Below, one piece after another: positions 1 to 38,049 of a DNA stretch of 40,000 bases. This stretch comes from Clostridia bacterium (GTDB lineage: Bacteria > Bacillota > Clostridia > TANB77 > UBA1234). Numbering within the stretch: the stretch's first letter is position 1; each line of letters begins with the position of its first letter. Position numbers and translations under genes: made by a program. The notes below the pieces were generated by a model. That model saw nothing but the letters and a program-made list of their open reading frames with translations. It searched no databases and was not told the origin of the DNA. The stretch covers positions 67,773 to 107,772 of the forward strand of contig JAFUGH010000014.1 in NCBI GenBank assembly GCA_017469465.1. The letters run 5' to 3'.

Positions 1-337
1 GCATATTTTAAAACTAAATCCCAAGTATTTTGAATATATGAAAAATGGTACTAAAATTATTGAAGTAAGATTAAATGATGAAAAGAGAAGAAATATAAGA
101 GTAGGGGATTTAATAATATTTAAGAAGGAACCAGATTTAGTTGAAGAAATTCATACAATAGTAGAGAATCTTATATACCAAGACAGTTTTCAAAAATTAG
201 TTGATGAAATAGAAACATCTTTGTATTCGGATGTGACTGAAACAAAAGAAAAATACTTAGAGGATATATTTCATTTTTACACGAAAGAAGAAGAACAAAA
301 ATATGGCGTTGTTGGAATAAAAATAAAGAAGGTGTAA
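1..337 (+). CDS. ASCH (PUA-like) domain protein, 5' end probably just outside the window
   Basis: ORF track 38..337. The frame stays open back to base 2 (HILKLNPKYFEY upstream of the ATG), which fits the usual ASCH N-terminus followed by G.K.IEVRLNDEKRR. Stop TAA 335-337 lies 1 nt before the next ATG (339), so the genes are translationally coupled. Confidence 0.7.
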   Translation, partial: HILKLNPKYFEYMKNGTKIIEVRLNDEKRRNIRVGDLIIFKKEPDLVEEIHTIVENLIYQDSFQKLVDEIETSLYSDVTETKEKYLEDIFHFYTKEEEQKYGVVGIKIKKV

Positions 338-338
338 A

Positions 339-1817
339 ATGAAAAAAGTTTTATTAGATACAAATATGTTCATATATCTTTTGGACCATCATGTTTTGAA
401 TCCAAAAGTTGAAAAATTAACAAGAATGCTTTTTGACTCAGAAGAATATAAAATTGTTATTCACCCAAAAACAATAGTTGAGGCGCAAAAGATAAAAGAT
501 CCAGTATTAAAAGAAATCTTTTTATCTAAATTACGTATTTACAAACAAATTGATAAACCTCCAATTCCATCAGAAGAGTTTATAAAAAGTTTGAGAGTTT
601 CATCTGATAATGATGAAATTGATATAGAGTTATTATATTCTGTACAAAAAAATTGTGTGGAGTACTTTATTACAAATGATAACGATTTGAAGAAAAAAGC
701 ATCTCGAATAGGACTGGGTGAAAGGGTTTTAAGTATTGATGAAGCGTTGGAGTTTTTCAAACCTGTAAAGGAAGAATTTGTAGATATTCCTGCTTTTATA
801 GAAGAAGACTATTTACGAAATATGGAATTAGATGACCCGTTTTTTACAAGCCTAAGAAATGATTATTGGGGATTTGATAATTGGTTTTTAAGAAAGAAAG
901 AAGAAAAGGCATATGTAATTAGAAATGATAAAAGACAAATAACATCATTTTTAATGCTTAAAGAAGAACCAGAAGATGATGTAGACCAATCTCTATTAAA
1001 GCAACTGCCGAATCAGAAAAGAATTAAAGTATCAACGTTTAAGGTAACAAATAGAGGAAAAAGAATAGGAGAAACATTTATAAAAATAATGCTTAGATAT
1101 GCAAGCAAAAGGAATGTTAATCTTTTATATGTAACAGTATTTCCAAAACAGGCTCAGTTAATAACTCTACTATCTGATTATGGTTTCACACTTTATACAC
1201 AAAAAATGACAACCAACTCAGAAGGAATTTCTTTAATGGAAAATGTATATGTTAAATATTTGGATGATTATACTAGTTTCCCTAATATCGAATATACCAA
1301 TCAGGGAATTTTCCTAGTTCCTATTAGACCAGAGTACAATAAGTTGTTATTTCCTGAATCAGAAATTAATTTCCAGCTATCATTGGATGATTATAGAGGT
1401 GAAATAACTTCGTCAAATGCTATAAAAAAAGCATATATATGTAATTCCAATACGAAACAAATTAAAAATGGAGATTTATTATTCTTTTACTCGACAAGAG
1501 AAAACATGAGAATGACAGCAATAGGGGTCGTTGATGAGGTATATGATCGTTTTGATAGTATTGACGATATTTTCGACATAGTGAGAAAAAGAACAGCGTA
1601 TTCTAATGAACAATTAAAAGATGTTGCAAGATTAGATAGCTTAGTAATCTTATTTAAACACTACTTATCTTTTGAACAAGAAATTAGATATAGAGATTTA
1701 ATAGAAATGGGTGTTATATCCAGTGGAATTCAACAAATTCAAAAAATAAATCAAGAAAAGATGAGTTTAATCATTTCAAGAGATGATAGTGTCGCAAATC
1801 ATATAAAATTTAATTAA
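339..1817 (+). CDS. 492-aa fusion: N-terminal PIN-like domain, central GNAT acetyltransferase-like domain, C-terminal PUA-like (ASCH/EVE-like) domain
   Basis: N-terminus LLDTNMFIYLLD ... FITNDNDLKKKA fits the PIN acidic-residue pattern. The middle KVSTFKVTNRGKRIGETFIKIMLRYA..LLYVTVF..LITLLSDYGF fits the GNAT motif A region. The C-terminus IKNGDLLFFYSTRE..MTAIGVVDEVY resembles an ASCH/EVE beta-barrel core. Domain calls are by eye only. Confidence 0.55.
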   Translation: MKKVLLDTNMFIYLLDHHVLNPKVEKLTRMLFDSEEYKIVIHPKTIVEAQKIKDPVLKEIFLSKLRIYKQIDKPPIPSEEFIKSLRVSSDNDEIDIELLYSVQKNCVEYFITNDNDLKKKASRIGLGERVLSIDEALEFFKPVKEEFVDIPAFIEEDYLRNMELDDPFFTSLRNDYWGFDNWFLRKKEEKAYVIRNDKRQITSFLMLKEEPEDDVDQSLLKQLPNQKRIKVSTFKVTNRGKRIGETFIKIMLRYASKRNVNLLYVTVFPKQAQLITLLSDYGFTLYTQKMTTNSEGISLMENVYVKYLDDYTSFPNIEYTNQGIFLVPIRPEYNKLLFPESEINFQLSLDDYRGEITSSNAIKKAYICNSNTKQIKNGDLLFFYSTRENMRMTAIGVVDEVYDRFDSIDDIFDIVRKRTAYSNEQLKDVARLDSLVILFKHYLSFEQEIRYRDLIEMGVISSGIQQIQKINQEKMSLIISRDDSVANHIKFN

Positions 1818-1818
1818 G

Positions 1819-1860
1819 AATAAGACAAATTGCAAAAAGAAGCAATTTGTCTTATTTTTT
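1819..1860 (+). terminator. intrinsic terminator after the PIN-GNAT gene
   Basis: 15-bp perfect stem AATAAGACAAATTGC / GCAATTTGTCTTATT, 8-nt loop, followed by a T-run. Confidence 0.85.
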
Positions 1861-1939
1861 GCTTTACTATTCTTTTTCATATGGTATAATTGTATTAACA
1901 ATAATGCTTATAAGCATATATGTTAATAAAGGAGAAGAA

Positions 1940-2305
1940 ATGGATAAAAAATTTGGAGAATTGGTTAAACAATATAGAGGAAACAGGAGCTTACAAAATC
2001 TTGGAAATGAAATTGGGGTTACTGCTTCATACTTATCAGATATTGAAAAAGGAAATAGAATTCCTTCTATAGATAAAGTTGATAAACTTATTAAAGTATT
2101 TAAATTAGAGGGGAAAGAAAAAAATCAATTTTACGATTTAGTGGCCGATGAAAGTCCAAACAAATATAAAGTTTCAGGAGATATTGCAGAATACATAATG
2201 AAAAATGATTACTTGAGGGAACTCATAAGATTGGCTAAAGAAAAAAATGTGAAAAAAACGTATTGGAAAAATAAAATCGAAGAGATTAAAGCAGAGGGGG
2301 TATAA
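1940..2305 (+). CDS. XRE-family helix-turn-helix transcriptional regulator
   Basis: Start moved to ATG 1940, which sits behind the SD AAAGGAGAAG. LQNLGNEIGVTASYLSDIEKGNRIPS is a classic HTH_3 motif. The track start at 1847 overlaps the terminator and promoter. Confidence 0.85.
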   Translation: MDKKFGELVKQYRGNRSLQNLGNEIGVTASYLSDIEKGNRIPSIDKVDKLIKVFKLEGKEKNQFYDLVADESPNKYKVSGDIAEYIMKNDYLRELIRLAKEKNVKKTYWKNKIEEIKAEGV

Positions 2306-2307
2306 CT

Positions 2308-2676
2308 ATGTGTAATATATTAATATCTATTAATCCAGAACATGTTGAAAACATTTTTAATGGAAGTAAAAAGTATGAATACAGGAAGGTTAAATGCAAA
2401 AAAGAGATTGATAAAATAATAATATACTCAACTTATCCTGTTAAAAAGGTTGTAGGTGAAGCAACTGTGGAAGAAATACTAGAAGATTCTCCAGAAGTTA
2501 TATGGAATGAAACAAAGGATGAATCGGGCATTAATCTTAATTTCTATGAACAATATTTCAAGAATAGAAATAAGGCTGTGGCATATAAATTGAAAGACAT
2601 AAAAAAATATAATAAACCTAAGTCCTTATTGAATTATGGAATTAAATCAGCACCACAATCATATGTGTATGTTTAA
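2308..2676 (+). CDS. ASCH domain protein (COG4933-like small PUA-fold protein)
   Basis: LISINPEHVENIFNGSKKYEYRK....IIIYSTYPVKKVVGEATV is the typical ASCH N-terminal pattern. The ATG is 2 nt after the XRE stop, so the genes are coupled. Confidence 0.8.
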   Translation: MCNILISINPEHVENIFNGSKKYEYRKVKCKKEIDKIIIYSTYPVKKVVGEATVEEILEDSPEVIWNETKDESGINLNFYEQYFKNRNKAVAYKLKDIKKYNKPKSLLNYGIKSAPQSYVYV

Positions 2677-2720: not shown

Positions 2721-3485
2721 ATGATTTATATTACAGGTGACACTCATGCAGATTTTTCAAGATTTGAAGATGGTAAATTTTCAATACAAAATGAAATGAC
2801 GAAAGATGACTTTGTAATCATTTGCGGTGATTTTGGTGGCGTATGGACTTATGAAATGGAAAGTATTTTAGAGCAAAAGAATTTAGATTGGCTTAATACT
2901 AGAAATTTTACTACACTGTTTGTAGATGGAAACCATGAAAACTATACAAGATTATATAATGATTATCCAGTAATAGAATGGCATGGTGGAAAAGTACATA
3001 AAATTAGAGATTCTGTATTACACTTAATGCGTGGAGAAGTTTTCGACATAGATGGAAAAACAATATTTGCATTTGGTGGTGCAAGATCACATGATATTCA
3101 AGATGGAATACTTAATTTAGATGAAGAGGAGAAGATATATGAATATCGAAAAAGAGGTGCATATTTTAGAATAAGAGATTATTCTTGGTGGGATTTAGAA
3201 TTGCCAACGGAAGCGGAAATGAAAAATGGAATTGCAAATCTGGAAAAGAATAATTTCAAAGTAGATTATATTATTACACATTGCTGCCCAACCAATGTTC
3301 AAACATTAGTAAATTTAAGATATAAAAAAGATTACTTAACTGATTATTTGCAAACGATAGCAGAAAAGTGTGATTTCAAAAAATGGTTCTTTGGACACTA
3401 TCACGAAAACAAACATATTAATCCTCAATACACATTGATATATGAAGGTATAGAACCATTGGAATATGTTAAAGAGTTCATATAA
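2721..3485 (+). CDS. calcineurin-like metallophosphoesterase
   Basis: Motifs GDTHAD, ICGDFGG, VDGNHENY and GHYH. SD AAAGGA lies upstream. Confidence 0.85.
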   Translation: MIYITGDTHADFSRFEDGKFSIQNEMTKDDFVIICGDFGGVWTYEMESILEQKNLDWLNTRNFTTLFVDGNHENYTRLYNDYPVIEWHGGKVHKIRDSVLHLMRGEVFDIDGKTIFAFGGARSHDIQDGILNLDEEEKIYEYRKRGAYFRIRDYSWWDLELPTEAEMKNGIANLEKNNFKVDYIITHCCPTNVQTLVNLRYKKDYLTDYLQTIAEKCDFKKWFFGHYHENKHINPQYTLIYEGIEPLEYVKEFI

Positions 3486-3512
3486 ATGTAATATATTATG
3501 GAGGTTAATACA

Positions 3513-4151
3513 ATGAAAGATGGTAAAACGCCTGATCCAAATACAATTTATCCGATTAACGGATATGATAAAGAAATATATATAAAGCCGACTATTAAGA
3601 ACAAAAACATTATTGTAGGAGATTTTTCATATATTGCAGATTCTGATTTTGAAAGCCATGTAACACATCATTATGAATGGAATAATGATAAGTTAATTAT
3701 AGGAAAGTTCTGTCAGATTGCTTCAGGAGTTGAATTTGTAATGAATGGAGCAAATCATCAAATGAATGCTGTTTCTACATTTCCATTTTACACTTTAGAA
3801 GGATGGGAACAAACACCACCAACACAAAATGATTTACCAATTAAGGGAGATACTATTATTGGTAATGATGTGTGGATAGGTCAAAACGCGACTATTCTTC
3901 CAGGAGTACATATTGGAGATGGAGCAATCATTGGCGCTAATAGTGTTGTTGGAAGTAATGTTGAGCCATATACGATTGTAGCAGGCAATCCATCAAAGCC
4001 AATTAGAAAAAGGTTTGATGATGAATTAATTGATATTATGGAAAAGCTAAAATGGTGGGATAAGAGTATTGAAGAAATAAATGGTTTAATTCCATTATTA
4101 ACATCAAGTGATTTAGAAAAAGTGAAAGAAGAATTATCAAAATTAGTTTAA
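3513..4151 (+). CDS. vat: Vat-family streptogramin A / xenobiotic O-acetyltransferase (hexapeptide repeat)
   Basis: MNGANHQM..STFPF, LPIKGDTIIGNDVWIG, GDGAIIGANSVV, AGNPSKPIRKRF and KWW closely match remembered Vat(D)/SatA blocks. Start moved to ATG 3513, 7 nt after GGAGG. Confidence 0.85.
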   Translation: MKDGKTPDPNTIYPINGYDKEIYIKPTIKNKNIIVGDFSYIADSDFESHVTHHYEWNNDKLIIGKFCQIASGVEFVMNGANHQMNAVSTFPFYTLEGWEQTPPTQNDLPIKGDTIIGNDVWIGQNATILPGVHIGDGAIIGANSVVGSNVEPYTIVAGNPSKPIRKRFDDELIDIMEKLKWWDKSIEEINGLIPLLTSSDLEKVKEELSKLV

Positions 4152-4155
4152 GATA

Positions 4156-4186
4156 GATGCCCTCGTTACTGAAGAGGGCATCTTTT
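4156..4186 (+). terminator. intrinsic terminator after vat (first part of repeated module, copy A)
   Basis: GATGCCCTC / GAGGGCATC stem followed by TTTT. Confidence 0.8.
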
Positions 4187-4267
4187 GCATTATAAGACTC
4201 AACTTTCATACTGATGATGACGTCAAATGTCAGTACAAAAATCAAATTGCAAAGTGCTAATCTTTCC

Positions 4268-4422
4268 TTGACAGTCTATCTACAGTCAACCCCACGGAAA
4301 ATACGGAAAATACGGAAAGAAAAACTAAGACACGAATCATACTTAGAGTGTCAGAAAACGTAAGCGTATCAGTGCATATATGGTAAAAAACAAAGAATTT
4401 CCCGAAGGCCTTAGTAAAAATT
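4268..4422. repeat. ~155-bp intergenic repeat element, copy A
   Basis: Starts CCTTGACAGTCTATCTACAGTCAACCCCACGGAAAAT... and ends ...CCCGAAGGCCTTAGTAAAAATT. It is homologous to 6436..6602 and 18833..18987. Confidence 0.8.
4294..4319. repeat. 9-bp tandem array ACGGAAAAT, about 3 units (copy A)
   Basis: ACGGAAAAT ACGGAAAAT ACGGAAAG read directly. Confidence 0.9.
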
Positions 4423-4462
4423 ACTACATCAAAAAAATTCTATATCTTGATACATATCGAGA

Positions 4463-4490
4463 TTGCAAAAACTTTCTTTTTTGATATAAT
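4463..4490 (+). promoter_or_regulatory. putative sigma-A promoter (TTGCAA, extended -10 TGATATAAT)
   Basis: TTTTTTGATATAAT at 4477-4490. The same 16-mer promoter core recurs at 13074-13090. Confidence 0.5.
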
Positions 4491-4552
4491 CAGAATATAA
4501 GGAACAATTAGTAATTATAAATGCAAATAGTAAGTTAAAAGGGAGTGATTTC

Positions 4553-4645
4553 ATGCCACTCGGAGTAACAATAGCTATTATATTTGTAATTGAGGTTAGA
4601 ATTTATGCTGATTTGAAAAAGAGAAATAAATATTTATTAGAATAA
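4553..4645 (+). CDS. 30-aa hydrophobic/basic peptide (MPLGVTIAIIFVIEVRIYADLKKRNKYLLE), below the ORF-track cutoff
   Basis: Strong SD AAAAGGGAG 7 nt upstream of the ATG. It has one predicted TM stretch and a Lys/Arg tail. Its own promoter lies upstream and the shared terminator at 4722-4757 lies downstream. Confidence 0.4.
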   Translation: MPLGVTIAIIFVIEVRIYADLKKRNKYLLE

Positions 4646-4721
4646 ATAATAAGTTATGAGGGATATCATATATGAAAACAAAAGAACGAAGTTATTTTCA
4701 ACTTTAAAAATGCGTGAAAGC

Positions 4722-4757
4722 AAAAGCAGAGATGGCATATATACCATCTCTGCTTTT
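4722..4757. terminator. bidirectional terminator between convergent transcripts
   Basis: AAAAGCAGAGATGG / CCATCTCTGCTTTT, 14-bp stem flanked by an A-run and a T-run. Confidence 0.85.
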
Positions 4758-4762
4758 ATTAA

Positions 4763-4996
4763 TTAGAAACCACCGCCATAGTCGTAGGTCGGACGACCAT
4801 CCTTGGTAGAATGAACATTGGTGATGCTACCGTCAGGCTGGATGTCGTACGACAAATGCCAGTTGCGACTCGTCGCATAAACAGAAACATGCGTCACTCC
4901 ACCAGAATGGGTTTCGTGCTTGCCACCACCAGCGGCAAGAATCGCCCGCTCCATTTCCTGAACATTCACCTTACCAGGATTATTGTACAGCGCCAT
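4763..4996 (-). CDS. 77-aa hypothetical protein with anomalous GC content (~51% by hand count)
   Basis: Start moved to the second ATG (4996), 7 nt behind the SD GAGGAG. Terminator lies downstream. Codons are G/C-rich, unlike every neighbouring gene. No family recognised (MALYNNPGKVNVQEMERAILAAGGGKHETHSGG...). Confidence 0.65.
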   Translation of the reverse strand: MALYNNPGKVNVQEMERAILAAGGGKHETHSGGVTHVSVYATSRNWHLSYDIQPDGSITNVHSTKDGRPTYDYGGGF

Positions 4997-5022
4997 AGAA
5001 GATCTCCTCTTCATTTTATTTT

Positions 5023-5043
5023 TAATACGCTATTTGCGTATTA
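5023..5043. promoter_or_regulatory. inverted repeat TAATACGC-N5-GCGTATTA just upstream of the GC-rich ORF's SD
   Basis: 8-bp perfect arms read directly. The position fits an operator or a 5'-UTR hairpin. Confidence 0.4.
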
Positions 5044-5233
5044 AATGCTCAAATATAATTATATAGATTTGAAAAGAATAGCCATATGTCTTATAACATA
5101 CGACATAATATCATAGCTTATGCATTATGTCAACGTTTTTACGAAAACTTTTTCAATATTTTTCTGAACTTATACGTAATTCAATAATTTATTCGTTAAT
5201 TTTGATATCAAAGATAAAGTGCAAAAATCGTCA

Positions 5234-5262
5234 AAATAAAGTGCAAATATTGCACTTTATTT
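5234..5262. promoter_or_regulatory. perfect palindrome AAATAAAGTGCAA-ATA-TTGCACTTTATTT upstream of fic, with an extra half-site at 5214-5225
   Basis: 13-bp perfect arms. The direct copy ATAAAGTGCAAA lies 20 bp upstream. The site sits just upstream of the probable promoter (GGTATAAT at 5285-5292). Confidence 0.55.
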
Positions 5263-5313
5263 CTTGCTATTGCTGAAAAAAGTTGGTATAATAGTATATA
5301 GGAGGTAGTTTCA

Positions 5314-6369
5314 ATGGGTAAAAATAAAAATTGGAATGTGGAATTATCTGAATATATTAAGCAAGGTGAACCAACTAGAGTAGAAAAAACAAAAGCATGG
5401 GAAACAGCAATTGGGCTTCAGGATGTTGATGGATTGAAACCTTCTAAATATTTGATTAAAACAGCGAAAGAACATATTGAAGGAAATATTGATATTGCAG
5501 AAGCAAAGGAAAGAATTAATCAATACTACGAAGAAGTAGATAATAGGAAAAAGATAGAAGAGGAAAATGAAGAAGCGGATAAAGTTGCTGTTAGAATCAC
5601 TGAGATTTTAAGTGAGAAAACTTTTAGCTTTATTCCAAATGAATTATTAAATATTCATAAGAGATTATTTAATGGTATTTTTAAGGGTGCTGGAGTATAT
5701 AGAGATTATAATTTTACTAAAAAAGAATGGGTGTTAAATGGTGATACTGTTTTATATGCACCATTCGAAACGATAAAAGAGGCTTTAGAATACGACTTTA
5801 ATCAAGAAAAAGAGTTTTCATATAAAGACTTAGGTATGGAAGAAGCAGTTAAGCATATATGCAAATTTGTTTCAAATATATGGCAGGTGCATCCGTTTTG
5901 TGAAGGTAATACAAGAACGACAGCAGTATTTTTAATAAAGTATTTACGAACATTTGGATTTAATGTAAATGATGATATTTTTGCAGACAATTCATGGTAT
6001 TTTAGAAATGCTTTAGTGAGAGCAAATTATAAGAATTTTGATAAAGGGGTTTTTGAAGATATAACATTTTTAGAAAAATTCTTTAGCAATTTGTTAATGG
6101 GAACAAATTATGAATTAAAAAATAGATACTTGCATATCGATTATAAATCAGATACTGATGACAAAAAAATTAATGAGAGTAAATATACAATAGAAGAACA
6201 AGCAATCATTAATCTATTAAAAGACAATCCAACAATAAACCAAGAAGAAATTGCAAAACATATTGGCAAGTCTTTAAGAACAGTTAAAACATATATGTCT
6301 GAAATGCAGGAGAAAGGTATAATCGCAAGAAAAAATAGTAAGAAAAGTGGCGAGTGGATCATATCATAA
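5314..6369 (+). CDS. fic: Fic/DOC (Fido) family protein with C-terminal winged-HTH
   Basis: The Fic core motif is present as HPFCEGNTRTTA (canonical is HPFx[D/E]GNGRxxR). The C-terminus INQEEIAKHIGKSLRTVKTYMSEMQEKGII is HTH-like. SD GGAGG. Confidence 0.85.
   Translation: MGKNKNWNVELSEYIKQGEPTRVEKTKAWETAIGLQDVDGLKPSKYLIKTAKEHIEGNIDIAEAKERINQYYEEVDNRKKIEEENEEADKVAVRITEILSEKTFSFIPNELLNIHKRLFNGIFKGAGVYRDYNFTKKEWVLNGDTVLYAPFETIKEALEYDFNQEKEFSYKDLGMEEAVKHICKFVSNIWQVHPFCEGNTRTTAVFLIKYLRTFGFNVNDDIFADNSWYFRNALVRANYKNFDKGVFEDITFLEKFFSNLLMGTNYELKNRYLHIDYKSDTDDKKINESKYTIEEQAIINLLKDNPTINQEEIAKHIGKSLRTVKTYMSEMQEKGIIARKNSKKSGEWIIS

Positions 6370-37975: not shown

Positions 37976-38049
<74 letters not shown>

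Follow-up and report, generated by a model that had tools for sequence, protein, structure and literature searches.

This report concerns a 40,000-nucleotide stretch of DNA, referred to as the window, from a Clostridia bacterium (GenBank assembly GCA_017469465.1, contig JAFUGH010000014.1, positions 67,773 to 107,772 of the forward strand), and specifically the four plus-strand genes that fill its first 2,676 nucleotides. These genes, open reading frames (ORFs) 1 to 4, are with near certainty a four-gene form of the (PIN)-GNAT-EVE/ASCH + ASCH module, which PADLOC lists as the candidate system PDC-M11. What might such a module do? The reading favored here, with slightly more confidence than doubt, combines an RNA-directed toxic effector (ORF2), one or more ASCH proteins as its antidotes, and an antidote unit that an XRE-family protein autoregulates. 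A toxin/antidote logic is plausible for the module; that it would operate by writing and erasing acyl marks is unlikely. The architecture and its catalogue entry are already known. New are a conserved palindrome in front of the XRE gene, a split of the ASCH signature between ORF2 and ORF4, conserved PIN acids together with a noncanonical but nearly invariant GNAT loop, an uneven divergence of the genes, and the four-gene form itself.

The features of the cluster, in window coordinates, are these:

1..337, plus strand: ORF1, a small PH0355-type ASCH protein, coupled to ORF2.
339..1817, plus strand: ORF2, 492 amino acids, PDC-M11A, a PIN / GNAT-like / PUA-like (ASCH-EVE) fusion, predicted effector.
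339..773, plus strand: PIN RNase domain (ORF2 residues 1-145), with acidic residues D7, E48, D95, and D114 conserved.
786..1268, plus strand: GNAT-fold domain (ORF2 residues ~150-310), with the noncanonical coenzyme A (CoA) loop R239-G-K-R-I-G244-E245.
1272..1814, plus strand: PUA-like beta-barrel (ORF2 residues ~312-492), a paralogue of ORF4 without the ASCH catalytic octapeptide.
1816..1866, plus strand: intrinsic-terminator-like hairpin and T run that ends the ORF1-ORF2 unit (arms 1816-1833 and 1842-1859).
1863..1890, plus strand: sigma-70-type promoter with extended -10, for the XRE-ORF4 unit.
1893..1928, no strand: 36-bp palindrome (18+18 nt) between the -10 element and the ribosome-binding site of the XRE gene, candidate XRE operator.
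1940..2305, plus strand: ORF3, 121 amino acids, XRE-family helix-turn-helix (HTH) protein, coupled to ORF4.
2308..2676, plus strand: ORF4, 122 amino acids, free ASCH protein of the PDC-M11B / GevA type, predicted antidote or eraser.

Membership in the family is carried by the two core proteins. ORF2 matches the PADLOC profile PDC-M11A (PDLC04422) with an E value of 2.5e-131, its residues 3-481 aligning to profile positions 2-491 of 501. For PDC-M11B (PDLC04425), ORF4 scores E 2e-43 and ORF1 no better than E 0.014, which identifies ORF4 as the M11B component. An initial annotation, made from the sequence of the window without database searches, did not recognize the architecture as a named system. 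This was wrong: it is PDC-M11, the (PIN)-GNAT-EVE/PUA + ASCH operon of two published surveys (PMC5499597, PMC7641849), and a PIN-less form has been annotated as GevT/GevA. In the first survey, Matelska 2017 (PMC5499597), PIN-GNAT-PUA proteins (PIN_15, PIN_17) have another PUA/ASCH protein encoded alongside, and in alpha-proteobacteria this second protein carries a fused HTH domain. In the second, Bell 2020 (PMC7641849), (PIN)-GNAT-EVE operons almost always include an ASCH gene and often an AAA_17 ATPase; the PIN-containing form is linked to type I restriction-modification (R-M), and the PIN-less form is found in prophages. Both credit the first description to Iyer 2013. An example with all of these parts is a Rhizobium etli plasmid (locus L037) that encodes an HTH_3+ASCH fusion of 301 amino acids, a PIN_3+Acetyltransf_1 protein of 512 amino acids, and an AAA_17 ATPase. 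Within the HTH-ASCH fusion, the ASCH portion is 29% identical to ORF4.

The PIN-less pair annotated as GevT toxin and GevA antitoxin belongs to the lambdoid Escherichia phage PhiR47_2 (GenBank PV340567.1), where the two genes immediately follow cI and precede kil. GevT matches PDC-M11A at E 2e-133 and GevA matches PDC-M11B at E 7e-52. ORF4 is 42% identical to GevA over its full length (E 3e-34), and residues 161-447 of ORF2 are 30% identical to GevT. In phage lambda, the interval between cI and kil carries rexAB. The literature searched contains no validation of PDC-M11, only its use as an annotation label, and no experimental study of PDC-M11, PIN-GNAT-EVE, GevT/GevA, or PhiR47.

Which of the four genes belong together? 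The window itself has two translationally coupled pairs, ORF1-ORF2 and ORF3-ORF4, and the initial annotation described the cluster by these pairs. Comparison with relatives gives a different pairing. In 23 of 23 related genome loci, which span Clostridia, Bacilli, Muribaculaceae, Gastranaerophilales, Thermoplasmata, and Methanobacterium, an ORF2 homologue is followed by an ORF4 homologue. The A and B genes are directly adjacent in 19 two-gene loci, and in the four-gene loci the XRE gene stands between them, as it does in the window, where ORF2 and ORF4 lie 490 nt apart on the same strand. The evolutionarily conserved pair is thus ORF2-ORF4, which is predicted to be the functional one, and the locally coupled pairs reflect local operon structure. 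An ORF1 homologue upstream of the ORF2 homologue was found only in L001, L028-30, and L033-34. In the loci compared, the constant small ASCH companion of the PIN-GNAT fusion is the ORF4 type, and the coupling of ORF1 is specific to a lineage. Judged from this distribution, ORF1 and ORF3 are lineage-specific additions, confined to some Firmicutes lineages. The four-gene layout is nonetheless not a chance arrangement, since it recurs in relatives with a 50-70% identical ORF2 homologue (the same six loci); two lineages at least have it, and between these the ORF2 homologues share no more than 49% identity. Between the window and L033, identity is 51% for ORF2, 56% for ORF1, 68% for the XRE protein, and 75% for ORF4, making ORF2 the fastest to diverge, a pattern that counts in favor of its reading as the effector.

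Two details of the gene models require comment. ORF1 is truncated by the start of the window; its frame is open from base 2 to a stop at 335-337, and on the source contig (L024, 9658-9999) the full gene encodes 113 amino acids and starts 5 nt before the window, about 2 codons being missing here. ORF3 starts at the ATG at 1940, which has a GGAG at 1931-1934 and agrees with the gene call on the source contig; a TTG at 1847 is not its start.

The domain calls of the initial annotation (PIN, GNAT-like, and PUA-like in ORF2, two ASCH proteins, and an XRE protein) were confirmed by Pfam, by AlphaFold2 models searched with Foldseek, and by a family-wide scan for PIN_3. For ORF2 these tools were needed. 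Pfam and NCBIfam scans of its single sequence return only EVE, with no PIN or GNAT, and a sequence search of the PDB returned nothing; the PIN and GNAT folds emerged from family-wide scans plus structure prediction. The AlphaFold2 model of ORF2, built with 40 homologues, has a mean predicted local distance difference test (pLDDT) score of 86.6.

For the N-terminal domain, Pfam PIN_3 is matched by 27 of 33 diverse family members over their N-terminal 148 residues, the best at E 4.6e-6, and the sequence from the window itself matches PIN at E 0.013 over 118 of 120 profile positions. The model of this domain (pLDDT 91.8) retrieves almost exclusively PIN structures in Foldseek, among them TTHA0540 (3ix7), VapC15, VapC11, FitB, HARP RNase P, Utp24, and SMG6. 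A profile search of the PDB adds weak PIN matches (E 0.05-0.3), which are supporting rather than decisive. Across 137 representatives that are 26-50% identical, the acidic residues are kept almost without exception: D7 in 97%, D/E48 in 99%, D95 in 99%, and D114 in 98%.

The central domain has Naa10, NatD, PaiA, and Naa60 as its Foldseek matches, at E 5e-6 to 1e-4 (5e-6 to 3e-5 for the first three). Its CoA loop is under strong constraint in the family (G240 96%, K/R242 88%, G244 95%, E245 99%), and this near-invariant GxKxGE loop indicates a site under selection. The Rhizobium homologue exceeds the Pfam cutoff for Acetyltransf_1 (32.1 versus 20.7 bits).

The C-terminal domain matches Pfam EVE at E 2.9e-6 (27.8 bits against a cutoff of 23), and its best Foldseek match is ZmASCH, the ASCH protein of Zymomonas mobilis (5y6b; E 5.3e-7, TM score 0.81 on the target). 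It is also related to ORF4: hhalign aligns it with the ORF4 family over 116 columns with a probability of 89.6% and E 1.9e-6. The two have in common a tyrosine (Y384 in ORF2, Y40 in ORF4, Tyr47 in ZmASCH) and a C-terminal glutamine (Q465 in ORF2, Q117 of the PQS motif in ORF4). What they do not share is the octapeptide of the ASCH amidohydrolases, since GxKxx[ETS]xR occurs in none of 69 ORF2 C-terminal domains. As this catalytic signature is absent, the domain is predicted to be a nucleic-acid reader or targeting domain, a reader at most.

ORF4, by comparison, has the signature intact. Its closest solved relative is ZmASCH (PDB 5gus, E 3.3e-10 by sequence search), and its Pfam ASCH score falls under the cutoff (18 versus 21.2 bits). 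The octapeptide G19-S-K-K-Y-E-Y-R26 fits the pattern G-x-K-x-x-[E/T]-x-R of ASCH amidohydrolases and tRNA N4-acetylcytidine (ac4C) erasers. In the family, Kxx[ETS]xR is found in 68 of 68 ORF4-type sequences, and K21, E24, R26, Y40, and P116-Q-S118 are each 100% conserved. An octapeptide that is invariant in the partner and lost in the homologous domain of the effector is what a division into reader and eraser would predict. A 2026 preprint speaks to the chemistry: 19 of 19 ASCH proteins tested, among them ZmASCH and proteins from Pyrococcus, stripped bacterial tRNA of ac4C34 in vitro, and the lysine and the glutamate or threonine of the octapeptide were essential for the removal (bioRxiv 10.64898/2026.02.27.708502). 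The initial annotation had cast the ASCH domains as possible readers or erasers of an acetyl mark. The preprint supports the eraser part for the free ASCH proteins, while the domain within ORF2, lacking the signature, could serve as a reader only. ORF4 also matches NCBIfam PRK12279, a fusion of 50S ribosomal protein L22 with a domain of unknown function (E 5.5e-14, profile positions 191-309 of 311), and the existence of this fusion in some genomes hints at a connection of ORF4-type ASCH proteins with the ribosome or rRNA.

ORF1 is an ASCH protein of another kind, with matches to Pfam ASCH (E 3.6e-7), DUF3850 (E 8.9e-7), and PH0355 in the PDB (2z0t, E 9e-10), which place it in the PH0355/PF0455 type. 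Its octapeptide, G-T-K-I-I-E-V-R, is intact, and it has only this N-terminal ASCH signature in common with ORF4. ORF3 matches Pfam HTH_3 at E 4.4e-9 and, in PADLOC, HTH_VI, capH, and Control_protein. Together with ORF4 it is a split version of the HTH-ASCH fusion that alpha-proteobacteria carry.

How might the antidote unit be controlled? The layout given by the initial annotation, four plus-strand genes in two coupled pairs with a terminator and an extended -10 promoter between them, is borne out in every part. The gaps between stop and start are 1 nt for ORF1-ORF2 and 2 nt for ORF3-ORF4. The hairpin at 1816-1859 has 18-nt arms, an 8-nt loop, a folding free energy of -21.1 kcal/mol, and a z score of -5.7, and none of 200 shuffled sequences folds as well. 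A search for inverted repeats recovers it too (repeat I1); a simple terminator scanner reported no sites. The promoter combines TTTACT (1863-1868), a 16-nt spacer, and TGgTATAAT (1882-1890), with 10 of 12 consensus matches and the TG of an extended -10 element. ORF3 and ORF4 form a separate transcription unit behind this promoter of their own, which overlaps the conserved palindrome.

The palindrome (inverted repeat I2) is 83% complementary in the window and perfect in L028 and L033 (TATTAACAAATATGCTTA / TAAGCATATTTGTTAATA). Its core, ATGCTTATAAGCAT, does not vary even between loci in which the ORF2 homologue shares just 50-70% identity with that of the window. As an exact match, this 14-nt core occurs in one copy per locus in nine four-gene loci, always just upstream of the XRE gene. 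In L001, L028, and L033 the -10 element is kept and the terminator position again holds hairpins, of different sequence; the palindrome has thus stayed almost invariant while the neighboring terminator changed in sequence and kept its hairpin. The layout corresponds to that of autoregulated XRE or C-protein genes, an HTH_3 protein behind a promoter overlapping a conserved palindrome, with binding predicted. The palindrome is the obvious candidate for the operator through which the XRE-ORF4 unit would be autoregulated. Control of the entire cluster by the XRE protein through one type of operator was also considered and was dropped, because no such palindrome was found when the region upstream of ORF1-ORF2 was inspected for it.

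The distribution of the family says more about what kind of element this is. At E <=1e-30, ORF2 is matched by 851 cluster representatives (50% identity), and nearly all of the best 150 of these 851 are about 500 amino acids long. The distribution is patchy and takes in bacteria, archaea, plasmids, and prophages. Plasmids with a homologue number 33, of which 11 are conjugative, and 16 phage records contain one as well, that of psiM100 (in an inserted fragment) among them. The 150 ORFs that flank 21 of the genome loci match Phage_integrase (10) and Fic/SoFic (6) most often and type I methyltransferase 3 times; there are also single genes for type II/IIG R-M, ThsB, AbiEii, and AbiD. A four-gene cassette with 70% identity adjoins hsdMSR, integrase, and ThsB-TIR genes; another, with 50% identity, adjoins hsdMSR and GmrSD and has a further ASCH gene; and one two-gene cassette has a Fic gene on one side and a small integrase on the other, with MazE-hsdMSR-GmrSD close by. 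Type I R-M is found alongside in all three sets of metagenomic contigs inspected. The PADLOC entry, the patchy distribution, and relatives beside type I R-M, GmrSD, ThsB-TIR, Fic, and integrase genes all agree with the earlier view of the cluster as a conflict-type accessory module and not a housekeeping one.

A housekeeping role is, in fact, very improbable. According to this explanation, ORF2 would be a tRNA or rRNA modification or processing enzyme with helper ASCH proteins. GNAT, PUA-like, and PIN domains all occur in RNA maturation, two homologues are labeled "rRNA-processing protein FCF1" by JGI, and the fusion to ribosomal protein L22 mentioned above (PRK12279, E 5.5e-14) might be read in the same way. 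Yet the family is sporadic across distant phyla, at 30-50% identity and without phylogenetic coherence; it travels on plasmids and phages, has integrases, Fic, and R-M genes as neighbors, and is entered in a catalogue of defense candidates.

The same mobile settings raise a different explanation, that the module is an addiction or counterdefense cassette of mobile elements, stabilizing plasmids, prophages, or islands by postsegregational killing or protecting its carrier against host R-M, with no antiphage role. The 33 plasmids (11 conjugative), the 16 phage records with the psiM100 fragment, the lambdoid immunity region, and the rank of integrases as commonest neighbors (10 of 150 flanking ORFs) speak for it, and Bell 2020 (PMC7641849) speculate that GNAT-EVE shields phages against R-M. 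Even so, it is improbable as a full account. The window and many relatives are chromosomal, a scan of a viral contig collection yielded one locus only (too few for any conclusion), and PADLOC lists the module as a phage defense candidate; besides, addiction and defense by abortive infection are not mutually exclusive.

Under the favored reading, in which ORF2 is toxic and the ASCH proteins are its antidotes, the module would work as follows. (i) ORF2 would be an RNA-directed effector whose reader domain docks on RNA, most plausibly tRNA or rRNA. (ii) Once docked, the PIN domain would cleave the target RNA, the GNAT domain would acylate it, or both. (iii) ORF4, and here also ORF1, would act as antidotes: as amidohydrolases they would remove the acyl mark, or else their paralogous domain would occupy the RNA site that ORF2 uses. 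(iv) The XRE protein would autoregulate the antidote operon. (v) When host transcription or translation collapses, as upon phage infection or loss of the element, the effector would win, leading to growth arrest or abortive infection. A more specific version of this scheme is a reversible RNA acylation system. The GNAT domain, docked by the noncatalytic reader domain, would write an ac4C-like N-acyl mark on tRNA or rRNA, the PIN domain would cut the marked RNA, and the free ASCH proteins would erase the mark, so that the cell survives until infection or loss of the element cuts off their XRE-controlled supply. We regard this version as tentative and rather unlikely. If it were true, it would be the first RNA base acetylation writer/eraser pair in biological conflict, and the ASCH family, large and enigmatic as it is, would gain a physiological role.

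A number of observations weigh against the toxin/antidote reading. One concerns the GNAT domain. Its motif A departs from Q/RxxGxG/A in having K/R instead of G at the fourth position (family consensus G240-x-[KR]-[ILV]-G244-E245), and Matelska 2017 (PMC5499597) regard the domain as degenerate, with acetyltransferase activity lost. The initial annotation called it an acetyl writer, an activity that is not established; of the catalytic residues it counted on, the PIN acids are 97-99% conserved, whereas the GNAT motif A is noncanonical despite its conserved loop. Another concerns the ASCH proteins. ZmASCH showed no activity on free ac4C, nor did it reduce ac4C in vivo (bioRxiv 10.64898/2026.02.27.708502), and it has been reported to be a Mg-dependent single-stranded RNA RNase with a nucleic-acid cleft that uses Tyr47, Lys53, and Ser128. 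On this precedent, ORF4 could be a second nuclease and not an antidote. ORF4 has no DNA-binding domain, and any binding of ORF2 by it is putative. The gene order places the putative toxin first. In the literature searched there is no demonstrated activity for any PIN-containing member, nor any stated basis for the names GevT and GevA, a label that is the depositor's annotation. Finally, the cluster has a G+C content of 25-30%, equal to that of its flanks. When three sets of Hsd queries were run in tblastn, just 3 of the 23 genome loci had an Hsd gene at a distance of 6 kb or less, and no R-M system is present within 10 kb upstream or 37 kb downstream of the cluster. Relatives do have R-M, GmrSD, and ThsB genes as neighbors, and in the window a Fic gene (PDC-S72) 2.6 kb downstream of the cluster counts in favor of the reading. 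Type I R-M is a frequent companion of the module but does not define it.

Several of these points are turned to account by a rival that makes the module a modification-sensing, restriction-like system. According to it, the PUA-like domains of ORF2, ORF4, and ORF1 recognize modified bases in the DNA or RNA of an invader, with the PIN domain as sole effector and the GNAT domain as a degenerate scaffold; ORF4, which in other taxa is fused to HTH or HsdS, binds modified DNA, regulates or targets, and works with type I R-M. The noncanonical motif A and the verdict of Matelska 2017 (PMC5499597) fit this well. So do the type I R-M linkage and an ASCH-HsdS fusion in Methanohalophilus reported by Bell 2020 (PMC7641849), who argue that ASCH binds modified DNA, and the Hsd and GmrSD genes that adjoin homologues. 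In the literature, moreover, type IV restriction enzymes commonly use PUA-family domains as sensors, and BapA, an ASCH-like 5-hydroxymethylcytosine DNA glycosylase, defends against T-even phages. Why, then, is this rival judged unlikely? PIN domains are overwhelmingly RNases, not DNases. G240, G244, E245, and other residues of the GNAT core are 95-99% conserved, which would not be expected of a mere scaffold, and one family member exceeds the Acetyltransf_1 threshold. PIN-less GNAT-EVE pairs exist and are labeled toxin/antitoxin, so the PIN domain cannot be the sole effector. The R-M linkage, as mentioned, is absent from the window and from most of the 23 genome loci.

An older proposal, attributed to Iyer 2013 by Bell 2020 and Matelska 2017, is an epigenetic type of self/nonself marking. 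The GNAT domain, guided by the PUA-like domain and perhaps by an RNA, would acetylate a base in the DNA or RNA of the host; the ASCH proteins would serve as readers or recyclers of this mark, leaving the PIN domain to attack nucleic acid that is unmarked or aberrant. The proposal is summarized in both surveys (PMC7641849, PMC5499597), it accommodates a writer (GNAT), a reader (the noncatalytic PUA-like domain), and eraser-competent ASCH proteins in one unit, and there is some association with R-M loci. It is nevertheless improbable. It meets the same noncanonical motif A, and acetylated DNA bases are not known in systems of this kind. A marking function would have to be constitutive and to cover the whole genome, whereas the module occurs sporadically and is mobile. 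Its prophage form is annotated as a toxin-antitoxin pair.

Should the GNAT domain be dead, a PIN effector guided by modified-base readers would remain, which would still be an uncharacterized defense logic. The stakes go beyond this one genome, as the family is large, extends across bacteria, archaea, plasmids, and prophages, and is listed as a defense candidate. To a specialist the cluster is not surprising; it offers a well-defined entry point to the role of PIN-GNAT-PUA/ASCH systems and of free ASCH proteins.

Some further observations concern the ASCH genes. Besides those of the cluster, a stand-alone ASCH gene (130-131 amino acids) lies at L024 2887-3279, 6.4 kb upstream of the cluster in the window, and another (likewise 130-131 amino acids) at L033 11415-11810, directly after the ORF4 homologue, with a weak match to PDC-M11B (E 6.5e-5). 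ASCH genes thus seem to accumulate around the PIN-GNAT-ASCH module. In psiM100 of Methanothermobacter (L038, NC_002628.3 8233-10078), the PIN-GNAT-EVE homologue is ORFD, at the end of "inserted fragment IFa," and after it comes ORF5, an ASCH protein that the record calls shared with phage psiM2; the effector gene may have been inserted beside a preexisting ASCH gene. A transposon-sequencing preprint reports an essential ASCH gene, Dda3937_01763, in a prophage of Dickeya dadantii 3937 (bioRxiv 10.64898/2025.12.09.693261), as would be expected of an antitoxin of the GevA type. No Dickeya entry is visible among the matches of a GevA homologue search, and a link between Dda3937_01763 and GevA is unconfirmed.

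Fic genes and recombinases are two other recurrent companions. The nearest recognizable conflict gene to the cluster in the window encodes a Fic-winged HTH protein of 351 amino acids (5314-6369, plus strand), 2.6 kb downstream, which matches PDC-S72 at E 1.2e-129 and, weakly, SoFic and PDC-S04. A different Fic type (HTH_17-Fic, SoFic-like) is encoded immediately upstream of the ORF2 homologue in the Bacilli loci L004, L009, L021, and L031, and an association between Fic and PDC-M11 may be recurrent. A small tyrosine recombinase (Phage_integrase) is encoded on the opposite strand just downstream of the ORF4 homologue in L003, L004, L005, L006, L009, and L031, all from Bacilli. It has 204 amino acids in L031, where it lies between the cassette and MazE-hsdMSR-GmrSD, and about 200 elsewhere. 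The recurrent recombinase suggests a mobile cassette or a phase-variable R-M locus.

The initial annotation also counted vat, fic, and an ORF of anomalous G+C content as associated genes, but none of these is a conserved neighbor. The vat gene (3498-4151), a 254-amino-acid gene (2721-3485), and fic (5314-6369) were considered as parts of the system and rejected, as they are not conserved beside the homologues and fic belongs to a candidate system of its own, PDC-S72. The 254-amino-acid ORF, on the plus strand 45 nt after ORF4, has motifs of calcineurin-type phosphoesterases by eye (GDTHAD, GDFGG, GNHEN, GHYH), no Pfam match, and a weak match to PDC-S10 (E 1.6e-7). L003 has a homologue with 30% identity, 5 kb upstream of its cassette; beside the remaining homologues of the module the gene is not conserved. 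The G+C bump, 37-40% against 25-31% around it, spans 4600-5200 and overlaps an ORF of 83 amino acids (4763-5014, minus strand) that has no match in Pfam, PADLOC, or Rfam; 4152-5313 is otherwise without long ORFs. The sole Rfam or ARAGORN match in the 40-kb window is tRNA-Gly(TCC) at 37976-38049 (plus strand), and elsewhere the window encodes SLH/Flg_new surface proteins, methyltransferases, DUF218, and LD-carboxypeptidase. The setting is an ordinary chromosomal accessory region of a low-G+C Clostridia metagenome-assembled genome, and ORF4 is 100% identical to an NCBI protein from such a genome labeled "Clostridia bacterium."

How does the cluster compare with known systems? It resembles PDC-M11 in that ORF2 is M11A over its full length and ORF4 is M11B, on the same strand and in the order A then B; it differs in having, between A and B, an XRE gene preceded by a terminator, a promoter, and an operator candidate of its own, and in having a second ASCH gene coupled upstream of A. 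With the (PIN)-GNAT-EVE + (HTH-)ASCH operons it shares the three-domain fusion, the second, PUA-like ASCH protein, the link to an XRE-type HTH, and defense or mobile contexts. Here, however, the HTH protein is encoded by a separate gene, there is no AAA_17 ATPase, and there is an extra ASCH protein of the PH0355 type. The Rhizobium operon puts HTH-ASCH first, whereas the cluster in the window puts the effector first and has no adjacent type I R-M. GevT, at 357 amino acids, lacks the PIN domain, and the GevTA pair, located in a prophage immunity region, has neither an XRE gene nor an upstream ASCH gene. As for ZmASCH (5guq/5gus), ORF4 keeps Y40 (Tyr47), Q117-S118 (Gln127-Ser128), and the octapeptide (GKER), but the equivalent of Lys53, present in ORF4 as K46, is not conserved: it is found in 20% of the family, where Gly is commonest, while Y40 and S118 are invariant.

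Among established toxin-antitoxin systems, TacAT/AtaRT/ItaRT and VapBC come closest by fold, having GNAT and PIN toxins, respectively, that act on tRNA or aminoacyl-tRNA and are neutralized by the product of a neighboring small gene. ORF2, by contrast, is a 492-amino-acid triple fusion with a noncanonical CoA motif, and its partner is an ASCH protein instead of an RHH/DUF1778 or VapB-type antitoxin; Pfam and NCBIfam scans show no DUF1778 or ribbon-helix-helix (RHH) match beside it, the neighbors being ASCH and XRE. An identity as a GNAT toxin of the TacT/AtaT type was rejected because the GNAT domain is embedded in the fusion and there is no RHH antitoxin. An identity as VapC was rejected as well, since the PIN domain is only the N-terminal part of the fusion, the upstream gene encodes an ASCH protein, and the XRE gene lies downstream in a separate transcription unit. 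We know of no significant sequence link between ORF2 and TacT-type toxins. The last comparison is with DarTG, in which a toxin that modifies nucleic acid is combined with an antitoxin that removes the mark, and which is used in phage defense. The chemistry of DarTG is ADP-ribose on DNA, and its folds are other ones, with no homology to those described here; what the two would share under the preferred model is the logic of a writer toxin and an eraser antitoxin, a purely functional analogy.

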